Shown here: one piece after another, positions 6,001 to 9,000 of the stretch
Layout: each line of letters begins with the position of its first letter
Numbering within the stretch: the first letter of the stretch is position 1
Virus record (IMG/VR): IMGVR_UViG_2563366971_000010
Coordinates: 1-24,908 of that record
Direction: 5' to 3' (one strand)
DNA length: 24,908 nucleotides
Origin: a virus
Lineage: Duplodnaviria; Heunggongvirae; Uroviricota; Caudoviricetes
Position numbers: made by a program

Positions 6001-9000
6001 CGACTTCACTGAGAACTGCGCCGATTTTGGTTTCAAATACGCCGCCGTCCAGCTCCCCGATAAATGCCTGCACATCAGTACTGCGTTCGCTAGCCATTTT
6101 GCTGCTCCTCATCATATCGACCCTGCAAGGTCGGTTGGTTTCTCCACAAAACAGAGAAGAACACCTGCGGTGGCAGCCGCCCGGATGGATTGGGTTATGA
6201 GCCCGTCGTCCGGTGATGCTCTTCTCTGTTTTGTAAAAAGAGCGGTACCAGCCGGAAGCAAGTGTACAAACTGGTACCGCCAAAGCAGTGGCTGTTGTGG
6301 TGACCGGTGCTGATCTCCGGCTTGCGGTTATTTCAGACTCTCACGGGCGTTTAATTGCCCCGCCGAACAGCTCTTTTCCGCAATAGCTGCAATGTCTTTC
6401 GCGCATCAGCCTGCGCATTCGCCACAACTCTAAAAACAAATGTAGGATATCCAACATGTAAGTGTCAAGAGTTTATGTTGGTTATCCTACATAAAAAGAT
6501 AGGCTCATAAAAAAACCGGGGATACCCCGGTTTTGCGATAGTGAGGAAGATGTGTCAAAAATCCATTATTACTTGTTTGACAAGACCAACTATTCTGCAG
6601 TTTTCACCGCATTCAATAGTTTTATAGTTAGGATTTAGTGGGACGAGATACCTGTTCGGCCAGTCCTCAACAAATTTTTTGAGTGTCGCTTCTTGCCCAC
6701 CATTGATATGGGCAACAACGATTTTTCCGTTAATACACTCTGTATCAATAATATCTGGCTCTACGATAACGATAGAACCTTCTGGTATCGATGGTGAGCC
6801 GAGGGGATTGGTCATTGAATCACCACGGACCCGTAGTGCAAATGCCATTTCTGATACAAGGGCGGTAGTATAAACCCACTCTTCAGCATCTTCTTTCCTG
6901 ACACCAGGCTCCGTCATTGTCCATGAACCCGCCTGAACCCACGAGATGAGGGGGACTTTTTTAACTGCGAATATTTCAGGTTTTAGATTTATCTTTGGTT
7001 CAGGCGAGCCTTTTCCGCTAACAAGCCACAGAGGATCGCATTTAAGTGCGTTGGCTAGGGCTTGAAGGTTGGCTCCATTTGGTTGGTAGTCGTCCTTTTC
7101 CCATCCAGTAACCGTGACACGGTTCACACCAGTCAAATCAGCCAGTGCTTGTTGTGTCAGGTTCAGTTCTTTTCGCCTTTGGCGAATACGATCACTCATG
7201 TTCATCATATAGGCAATCCTACCACATGCCCATGTAGGATTCTTGACATTGGAATGTTGGATATCCTACATTTCTGCTTAACGTAATTTAACGGGAGACA
7301 GAAATGCGGAAATCCGACGTGATTAATTATTTCGGCGGAGTTTGTAAAACCGCCGAAGCCCTAGGTATTAAGCATCCGTCTGTTTCAGAGTGGCCTGAGA
7401 TTATTCCTGAAGGCCGAGCGTACCAGTTAGAAAAAATTACTAACGGGAAACTGAAAGTTGACGTGTCTTTATATCAAAAGACTAACAGTGCTGCGGCATA
7501 AAAACACCACAGAAATGAGGAATTAACCGTGGGTAAAGAACCTGAATGGAAAGTTGATAAACAACCAGCATGGCTGGTGGCAGCAATACGAAGAACGATT
7601 GCTGATTTACCTCATGGCTATGAGGAAGCAGCAGAAATTCTTGGTTTGTATAAATCTGATGATATCACCCCAGCAAAAGATCAATTGCATAACAGACTGC
7701 GTAGCGGTGGGGATCAAATTTTTCCACTTGAGTGGGCCATGGTTTTACAGGATGCCAGTGGTACCAGGCATGTAACAGATGCAATAGCCCGTCGTAGTAA
7801 TGGGGTGTTTGTGCCGCTGGTGGTCATTGATGACATTGACAATGGTGACATTAATCAGCGGCTGATGGAGTCAATAGAATGGATTGGCAAGCATTCCCAG
7901 TACTTACGCAAGGCAACTGCTGATGGAGTTATTGACCAGGCTGAGCGTGAGCAAATCGAAGAGAACAGCTACCAAGTAATGGCGAAGTGGCAGGAGCATT
8001 TAACACTGTTATTTCGTGTTTTTTGTGCGCCGGAAAAGAGTAACGCCCGCGAGTGTGCAGCTCCGGGCGTCGTGGCGTCGATTGCTTCTGGTTGTGGAGA
8101 AACTAACGCATGAACAGTTTAACAACACACTACCGTCGCTCGCAACTGATTGCGCTTCCTGTACCGGGTGGAAAAGCGAAGGTGGAGTATTGCTATGCAG
8201 TGAATGTACCAGGTGACAGGGAAATTGTAACCCACAGATTTGCAGAGTGGGCTGTGGGTGATTTCAACCGGCAGAAGGAGACAGTCCTTTGCAACAAGTT
8301 AACCGCTGGTTCAAAGATCACTACGGAGTGCCCGTCAGAGTCATTCGTTGGGAGCCGGAAACACAACGGGTTATCTACCTCCGTGAAGGCTATGAACATG
8401 AATGCTTCAGTCCGCTCGAACAGTTTCGTCGTAAATTCAGGGAAATAGAGGTCGGTCATGAGCCTGTTAATGACATCCCAGCCCATTGTGATAAATCGTG
8501 ATCTTGCATGCCGTATTGGTCTGAATGAGGCAATTGTGTTGCAGCAGCTTCATTACTGGCTGAATGAAACGAATTCAGGCACTGAGCATGGCGGAATTCG
8601 CTGGGTTTATAACACGACAGAACAGTGGCTGGAGCAGTTTCCGTTCTGGTCAGAGTCCACTCTGAAACGCACATTTGCAAGCCTGAAATCACTTGGGGTT
8701 TTGCGTCGCGAGCAACTCAATAAATCGAAGCGTGACATGACCAACTTCTACACGATCAACTATGAAAGTGAGCTTTTAGAAGAGGTCAAAGTGAACGAAT
8801 CCATCAGGTCAAAATGCACCTCTCCATCGGGTCAAAGTGACCTGATGGATGAGCGCAAAATGACACGATCCATTGGTTCAAAACGACACGCTGTCATCGG
8901 GTCAAAATGGCCCAATGATCTTACAGAGAATACAACAGAGATTACTACAGAGAATAAAACCTCTTCTCGTCCGGACGCTTCGCAACCGGACACGCAGATG

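Follow-up and report, generated by a model that had tools for sequence, protein, structure and literature searches.

The closest described relatives of the switch considered here are the immC region of phage P22, with its repressor C2, Cro and the right and left operators (OR and OL), and the immunity region of lambda, in which cI and cro diverge over a tripartite OR with site spacings of 22–26 bp, OL overlaps the leftward early promoter (PL) and a CII-type gene follows cro. The P22 operator consensus is ATTTAAGATATCTTAAAT, of which the ATAT centre is not contacted and on whose half-site Val33 of the repressor packs (PMC5175364). We analysed a 24,908-nt stretch of Caudoviricetes DNA (IMG/VR record IMGVR_UViG_2563366971_000010, positions 1–24,908; hereafter the window, meaning the whole of this stretch), which belongs to an Escherichia coli prophage adjoining zur/dinF. 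The DNA around its cI-type repressor gene is, with high probability, the immunity (lysis–lysogeny switch) region of a lambdoid E. coli prophage with P22- and lambda-like wiring. A sequence-only reading had proposed an immunity region with three operators; the immunity region itself is upheld by gene content and comparative evidence, but the operator positions number five rather than three. The region is a real and well-conserved switch of the ordinary, classical kind and an uncharacterised addition to a well-known type, with a hitherto undescribed operator specificity that resembles that of P22; it leaves unaltered what is known of the working of lambdoid switches. No description of these operators was found in the literature searched, which covered the operator, the half-site, mEp390, Lys8385Vzw, YmfL and YmfK.

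Gene content and comparison with P22 and lambda

The gene order is canonical, with a terminator, cI (encoding HTH_3 and S24 domains), a 95-bp intergenic gap, cro (P22_Cro), a CII-like gene and, next to its right, a gene for an O-like replication protein (Table 1). As in lambdoid CI/Cro pairs, cI (−) and cro (+) are divergent across the gap, and cI, cro and the CII-like gene are all intact. The product of the CII-like gene also matches Pfam Phage_CP76 (28.8 bits, cut-off 26) and carries the RefSeq name 'YmfL family putative regulatory protein'. The terminator of the cI transcript has a predicted fold of −17 kcal/mol (z = −3.84), and a hairpin followed by a T-run is kept at this position in most relatives of the locus.

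The repressor combines an N-terminal helix-turn-helix (HTH) domain, with the recognition helix N29-R-V-T-V-T-G-W-E37, and a C-terminal S24 autoprotease domain with Ala93-Gly94, Ser131 and Lys177/178. Among solved structures it matches lambda CI (7e-25) and the N-terminal domain of P22 C2 (3.9e-14): residues 4–66 have the C2 N-terminal domain as their closest solved relative, while for residues 84–210 it is the C-terminal domain of lambda CI (about 1e-22), which is nearer to them than any solved P22 fragment. The VQAG, GDSMT and LKK motifs align with VQAG, GNSMT and FKK of lambda (the Ala-Gly site and the Ser/Lys dyad), and judged by its domains and these aligned residues the protein has the architecture of an HTH joined to a LexA-type S24 domain that is predicted to cleave itself.

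With P22 the region has in common the repressor N-terminal domain, the Cro family and the operator plan, an 18-bp site with 6-bp halves around a 4-bp A/T centre, as expected for recognition of the C2 type. The immunity is nevertheless not that of P22, as the half-site is TGTAGG here and TTTAAG in P22, and the helix NRVTVTG here and SNVAISQ in P22. P22 has three adjacent OL sites, where the present region has two, 35 bp apart, and its gene-24/N antiterminator and immI region are both absent from the window. The lambda plan of divergent cI and cro over three OR sites, of OL overlapping PL and of a CII-like gene after cro is followed likewise, but the HTH and operator sequences differ from those of lambda, rexAB is missing between cI and OL, and OL and OR are only 814 bp apart. 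There are two OL operators, no N or nut was found, and no cI promoter (PRM) was found at a conserved position. Whereas lambda OR3 lies 10 bp from the cI start codon, OR3 abuts the start codon here.

The switch is also close to that of phage mEp390, which carries GVNRVTVTGWE, the helix of the window, in a repressor of 61% identity. All five sites recur there in the layout seen here, OR3 being GGTAGGATTGCCTACA and OL2 preceding the −35 hexamer by 7 bp; the operator variants AGTAGGATATCTTACA and GGTAAGTTATCCTACA of mEp390 and unnamed enterobacterial prophages differ from the operators of the window, as do the flanking genes of mEp390-type relatives, in which the rightward early promoter (PR) reads TTGACC-18-TACTAT. 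No experimental study of the mEp390 switch was found in the literature searched.

Operators and early promoters in the window

The 16-mer TGTAGGATATCCAACA on which the three-operator proposal was built is present as described, exactly at OL1 (+) and OR1 (−) and with one mismatch at OL2 (−). Six strand-matches at ≤3 mismatches occur in the 24.9 kb, compared with 0.16 expected, a count reached in none of 100 shuffles, and there are no further sites at this threshold. The core heptamer GTAGGAT is found six times in the window (1.77 expected), with five of the six copies within the 830-bp stretch 6442–7269. The 16-mer is itself a 14/16 palindrome, which the flanking A and T extend to an 18-mer at four of the five sites. 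Sites were scored with a position weight matrix (PWM), for which the maxima of shuffled sequences have a median of 9.6 and a 95th percentile of 16.2.

The two OL operators bracket the −35 hexamer of PL, OL2 lying 7 bp upstream of it and 35 bp start-to-start from OL1. The OL operators overlap the leftward early promoter, with two sites as against the classical three; a third site was sought between OL2 and the cI terminator, where the window has no room for one, and no third site is conserved among the relatives. At OR there are three operators, whose sequences make OR1 a strong site, OR3 a moderate one and OR2 a weak one. OR3 contains TAGGAT/AGGA, a possible −10 of PRM or Shine-Dalgarno sequence of cI.

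Two weak operator-like 16-mers, TGCAGGATATCTTTCT (503–518) and TGTAGGATACCCGTCC (560–575), were rejected since their scores of 9.0 and 8.8 fall within the shuffle range; they lie towards the zur end of the prophage, 57 bp from one another.

Both divergent early promoters are indeed TTGACA-18-TACATT, as had been noted from the sequence, and they are the only two 10/12 consensus matches returned by the promoter scan. The operator overlaps the promoter in both cases, the 16-mer taking in 12 bp at the end of the spacer and continuing through the first 4 bp of the −10 hexamer. The near identity of PL and PR holds for the −35 hexamer and for a 20-bp block comprising operator, −10 and flanks, and does not extend to any longer duplication. 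Transcription from PL probably starts near 6432.

Table 1 Features of the immunity region, with window coordinates (strand '.' for operators; PWM, score with the position weight matrix)
Feature	Position	Strand	Description
PL, leftward early promoter	6439..6468	-	TTGACA (6468..6463), 18 bp, TACATT (6444..6439); 10/12 match
OL1	6441..6456	.	TGTAGGATATCCAACA; over PL spacer and first 4 bp of −10; exact 16-mer; PWM 24.5, top in window
OL2	6476..6491	.	TGTTGGTTATCCTACA; one mismatch to 16-mer; PWM 22.7
Intrinsic terminator of cI transcript	6509..6534	-	CCGGGG-UAU-CCCCGG then U7; between cI stop codon and OL2
cI-type repressor, 217 aa	6555..7208	-	Pfam HTH_3 1.1e-15 and Peptidase_S24 3.7e-25; PHROG 4, transcriptional repressor
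OR3	7208..7223	.	TATAGGCAATCCTACC (cI sense GGTAGGATTGCCTATA); PWM 15.1; last base is the A of cI ATG
OR2	7233..7248	.	TGTAGGATTCTTGACA; one consensus half (TGTAGGAT), other half is PR −35 hexamer; PWM 7.6
PR, rightward early promoter	7243..7272	+	TTGACA (7243-7248), 18 bp, TACATT (7267-7272); 10/12 match
OR1	7255..7270	.	TGTTGGATATCCTACA; over PR spacer and first 4 bp of −10; exact inverted 16-mer; PWM 24.5
cro, 65 aa, P22-Cro family	7304..7501	+	Pfam P22_Cro 7.6e-22; P22 Cro structure 1rzs 7.3e-12; PHROG 409
CII-like / YmfL-family regulator, 194 aa	7529..8113	+	PHROG 101 (CII-like transcriptional activator) 3.4e-62

Conservation of five operator positions among relatives

Relatives of the repressor, collected by a scan of one genome per species, were found in many genera. 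For 20 of them with the helix (N/S)RVT(V/I)TGWE and repressors 49–90% identical (from Enterobacter, Pantoea, Erwinia, Kluyvera, Rahnella, Sodalis, Tatumella, Proteus and Morganella, together with phage mEp390), the intergenic DNA on both sides of cI was aligned. Conservation is concentrated in five blocks, corresponding to OR1, OR2, OR3, OL1 and OL2, and in the promoter hexamers, with a mean majority fraction at OR of 0.91 in the operators compared with 0.55 outside them, and at OL of 0.86 compared with 0.45. OR1 is kept in 20/20 relatives and the OL1 position in the 16 that have an OL region. At OR2 the CCTACA half is kept in all 20, the other half being the PR −35, and at OR3 the sequence GGTAGGATT(G/A)CCTACA is nearly invariant and abuts the cI ATG, its last base being the A of that codon, in 20/20. 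Spacings are fixed as well, at 22–23 bp between OR1 and OR2 and 25–26 bp between OR2 and OR3; OL2 and OL1 are 35 bp apart in 15/18 relatives, a distance found again in a Proteus relative whose operator sequence differs. The promoters are kept as TTGAC-18-TACAT at PL and TTGAC(A/C/T)-18-TAC(A/T)(T/A)T at PR.

The conserved partner halves and fixed spacings indicate that the additional half-sites reported alongside the 16-mers, which are present as GTAGGAT at 7216–7222 (−) and 7234–7240 (+), are not mere half-sites but the good halves of full operators, OR3 (7208–7223) and OR2 (7233–7248), respectively, giving a five-site switch. At a much shorter evolutionary distance, single-nucleotide polymorphisms (SNPs) among 58 near-identical loci fall in the promoter spacers and the OR2–OR3 gap and not in the operators, apart from position 7209; OR1 is unchanged throughout this set.

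Half-site specificity and the recognition helix

That the half-site sets the immunity specificity, as was claimed from the sequence, is supported by the repeat changing together with the recognition helix: relatives with other helices have other repeats at the same positions. In the Proteus hauseri group the helix is SASAVTQWE and the repeat AAATGTAAG-N4-CTTAC, with the OL pair again 35 bp apart; a marine gammaproteobacterium with the helix SSGGVSQW has three copies of CTTAGAAAACTAAG at 22 and 24 bp; and Marinobacterium, with SKGTVSQW, has GTTTAGAA..TTAAA. Members of the family have a TGT[A/T/C][G/A]G half-site next to a 4-bp centre rich in A/T, and G2, T3 and G6 dominate the information profile, with A/T at positions 7–10. 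The likely determinant of specificity is TGTAGG, the outer 6 bp; ATAT in the centre and the 6+4+6 plan are common to the P22 consensus. On the evidence of helix and repeat together, the immunity group would be defined by the helix NRVTVTGWE and the operator A-TGTAGG-ATAT-CCTACA-T.

The symmetrised site ATGTAGGATATCCTACAT matches the P22 consensus at 14/18 positions, and each half-site differs by two base pairs, with G in place of T3 and of A6. In the alignment of the helices, P22 Val33 corresponds to Val31 here, Asn32 to Arg30 and Gln37 to Gly35, and Arg30 may read the new guanines of the half-site. With operators that differ at two positions per half-site and helices that differ at few residues, the pair formed with P22 is a natural test case for HTH specificity change.

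Two relatives, L136 and L137 (prophages of a Sodalis sp. and Acerihabitans arboris), have the helix GVSRVTVTGWE, with Ser for Asn at its first position, and operators enriched in TGTCAG/TGTCGG halves, e.g. CGTCAGTTTTGCGACA. Here a single residue may covary with a single base inside the family.

Alternative explanations

A narrower interpretation takes only the three strong 16-mers as operators, with the GTAGGATT pair (7215–7222 and 7234–7241) either incidental or forming one unusual site, AATCCTAC-N11-GTAGGATT, bound in another geometry or by another protein, such as Cro or the CII-like factor. In its favour, the GTAGGATT copies make up an inverted repeat of 8 bp, the PWM score of OR2 lies within the shuffle range and that of OR3 reaches only about the 95th percentile of shuffle maxima. 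We nevertheless consider this interpretation unlikely, because all 20 relatives keep, beside each GTAGGAT-type half, the partner half of a 16-mer (TGCCTACA at OR3 and the −35 at OR2) rather than the N11 gap, because the OR2–OR3 gap is the least conserved stretch, and because spacings of 22–23 and 25–26 bp fit the pattern of three adjacent sites in lambda and P22. The alternative that the repeats are the trace of a duplicated promoter, PL and PR being paralogous copies and the repeats no protein-binding sites, would account for the −35 hexamer and the 20-bp block including the −10 that both promoters have in common, but it is extremely improbable: OL2 and OR3 carry the same palindrome outside any promoter copy, palindromic symmetry is kept across genera while promoter-spacer bases drift, and the repeat sequence changes with the recognition helix of the adjacent repressor.

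It is also very unlikely that the region is a decayed, non-functional remnant of a cryptic-prophage switch. The intact cI, cro and CII-like gene argue against decay, as do the operators, which are invariant in the 58 loci with SNPs elsewhere (7209 apart), and the occurrence of the region at 99.5% identity in Lys8385Vzw, vB_EcoM-720R4 and SKA5, which were induced and sequenced as particles or are complete phage records. This has to be set against the DUF551 pseudogenes of the host prophage, the lack of an annotated integrase at its zur-proximal end and the change of the best-conserved G in the OR3 of the window.

Several observations weigh against the five-site interpretation itself. Sites of the window itself went into the PWM, which makes its top scores partly circular, and OR2 is not significant when taken alone (7.6, compared with the shuffle median maximum of 9.6); its assignment draws on positional conservation, which suggests an operator although one of its halves would be constrained anyway as the PR −35. 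With two sites rather than three at OL and neither an N gene nor a nut site, the region is not a full copy of lambda. Scanning of the 20 relatives in the cI direction gave no conserved sigma-70 promoter for cI, save the TAGGAT hexamers within the operators, and the candidate TGGGCA-17-TATGAT depends on an SNP found in 4/140 genomes, which leaves PRM and positive autoregulation as candidates. Finally, no experiment on this repressor or its sites was found in the literature searched.

Proposed mechanism and the cI promoter

In the five-site switch, dimers of the cI-type repressor would bind 16–18-bp pseudo-palindromes of the form A-TGTAGG-ATAT-CCTACA-T. Occupation of OL1, over the spacer and −10, and of OL2, just upstream of the −35, would turn PL off, and occupation of OR1 (spacer and −10) and OR2 (−35) would turn PR off. 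OR3, which ends on the cI start codon, is predicted to limit cI expression when occupied and is likely the preferred site of Cro, which, made from PR, would compete for the sites of the repressor. Such sharing of operators by repressor and Cro with opposite preference is a prediction, binding being supported by the covariation of helix and repeat alone. The lambda-like C-terminal domain makes pairwise cooperativity plausible, which would act across 22–35 bp between neighbouring sites, and it makes OL–OR looping plausible over the 814 bp. An order of site occupancy is likewise predicted. As this domain is lambda-CI-like, with an Ala-Gly site and a Ser/Lys dyad, RecA-stimulated self-cleavage of the repressor should induce the prophage, which would make it SOS-inducible. 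Transcripts of cI would end at the terminator just before OL2.

The candidate PRM TGGGCA-17-TATGAT has a lambda-like geometry, with OR2 centred near −42, but was rejected as a promoter of the family since it would lack a −10 without the A at 7209. Common to the whole family is instead TAGGAT followed by 7 nt and ATG, which suggests either a leaderless cI mRNA or AGGA acting as ribosome-binding site; were TAGGAT the cI −10, it would place OR2 over the −35.

A lambda-type N was likewise not found: no open reading frame (ORF) of at least 40 codons occurs from about 6432, where PL transcription is inferred to start, to yfdP at 6097, Pfam has no match for YfdP, whose PHROG is of unknown function, and there was no Rfam hit above threshold. 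No Rfam match was obtained at the gathering threshold in the whole window. Of two matches obtained in 6050–7320 at E up to 5, 'Termite-leu' (21.7 bits, gathering score 51) overlies OL2 and the cI terminator and was read as the terminator hairpin, and the other was a 20-nt chance match.

The stretch of about 335 nt from the inferred PL start to yfdP (6098–6432, −) is strongly structured (z = −4.07). It contains a 25-codon ORF (6418..6341), a terminator-like hairpin (6281..6241) followed by UCUUUUU and, directly after, a second hairpin (6236..6146) whose stem is about 25 bp long. Transcription from PL would have to pass these structures in a phage without N. Within the same stretch, the 136 bp at 6293–6428 match, at 97.8% identity, the 3' end of the 'plp' lipoprotein gene and downstream sequence of P1-family phages (JL22, RCS47 and P1), and the sequence is also present in mEp460, IME207 and Stx2a phages. 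The similarity ends at 6428 in all of them, about 4 bp from the inferred PL start, so that the immunity module has a mosaic junction at its edge.

An OR3 variant in the lineage of the window

Position 7209 is A in the window and G in 56/58 of the related phage and IMG/VR loci, in which OR3 is TGTAGGCAATCCTACC; the exceptions are the window and its source strain. Among the E. coli genomes with the region, A is present in 4/140 (N24, N17, N64 and MS20657) and G in the other 136, as confirmed by comparison with H10407 and Lys8385Vzw, and its carriers include cerebrospinal fluid (CSF) isolates. Within the OR3 half-site it is the best-conserved G that is changed, TGTAGG becoming TATAGG, and a −10-like hexamer, TATGAT, arises in the cI direction.

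Taken together with the layout of the sites, this allows a tentative and rather doubtful joint reading, in which the family is a distinct variant of lambdoid wiring and the switch has been retuned in the lineage of the window. In the wiring variant only two dimers may act at OL, bracketing the −35 at 35 bp, a spacing that is about one helical turn beyond the 24 bp of lambda and that is kept in Proteus relatives despite another operator, and OR3 may double as cI −10 or ribosome-binding site and as start codon. If this is true, A7209 could raise repressor levels and make a prophage that carries a pertussis-like toxin harder to induce.

Distribution

Over the 1,301-bp region compared, the window is identical to strain N24. 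The same 1.3-kb region is present at ≥99.2% identity in phage Lys8385Vzw (Stx1), three Stx2c phage records, vB_EcoM-720R4 and SKA5, and in 140/5,426 complete E. coli genomes, including enterotoxigenic E. coli H10407 and Shiga toxin-producing E. coli of serogroups O157, O121, O103 and O111. In at least 60 IMG/VR contigs the OL1/OR1 pair occurs at the same distance of about 814 bp. For the SNP comparison of near-identical loci an asymmetric anchor gave the orientation, since the pair maps onto itself on reversal.

In the description of Lys8385Vzw, CI, Cro, CII, CIII and N are stated to be absent from the phage (PMC7946995). The Lys8385Vzw record (L001, MT225100) contains at 4256–5814 the module of repressor, cro and CII-like gene that the window has, under the annotations 'LexA family transcriptional repressor', 'hypothetical protein' and 'DNA-binding protein'. 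The presence of these genes in Lys8385Vzw matters for reasoning on Stx induction.

Other genes of the prophage

Further rightward, 10591–10917 (+) encodes a 108-aa phage protein that consists of the LexA DNA-binding domain alone (PF01726, 2.9e-19), without the S24 cleavage domain. It could act as a LexA mimic that cannot be cleaved; the repressor of the same prophage looks SOS-cleavable. The interval 13132–15006 (+) contains a Q antiterminator gene (13132–13518) followed by an AB5 toxin pair, comprising a B subunit at 13820–14239 (RefSeq name 'subtilase family AB5 toxin binding subunit') and a pertussis-S1/scabin-like ADP-ribosyltransferase at 14275–15006; the pair occupies the position that stx has in Stx phages.

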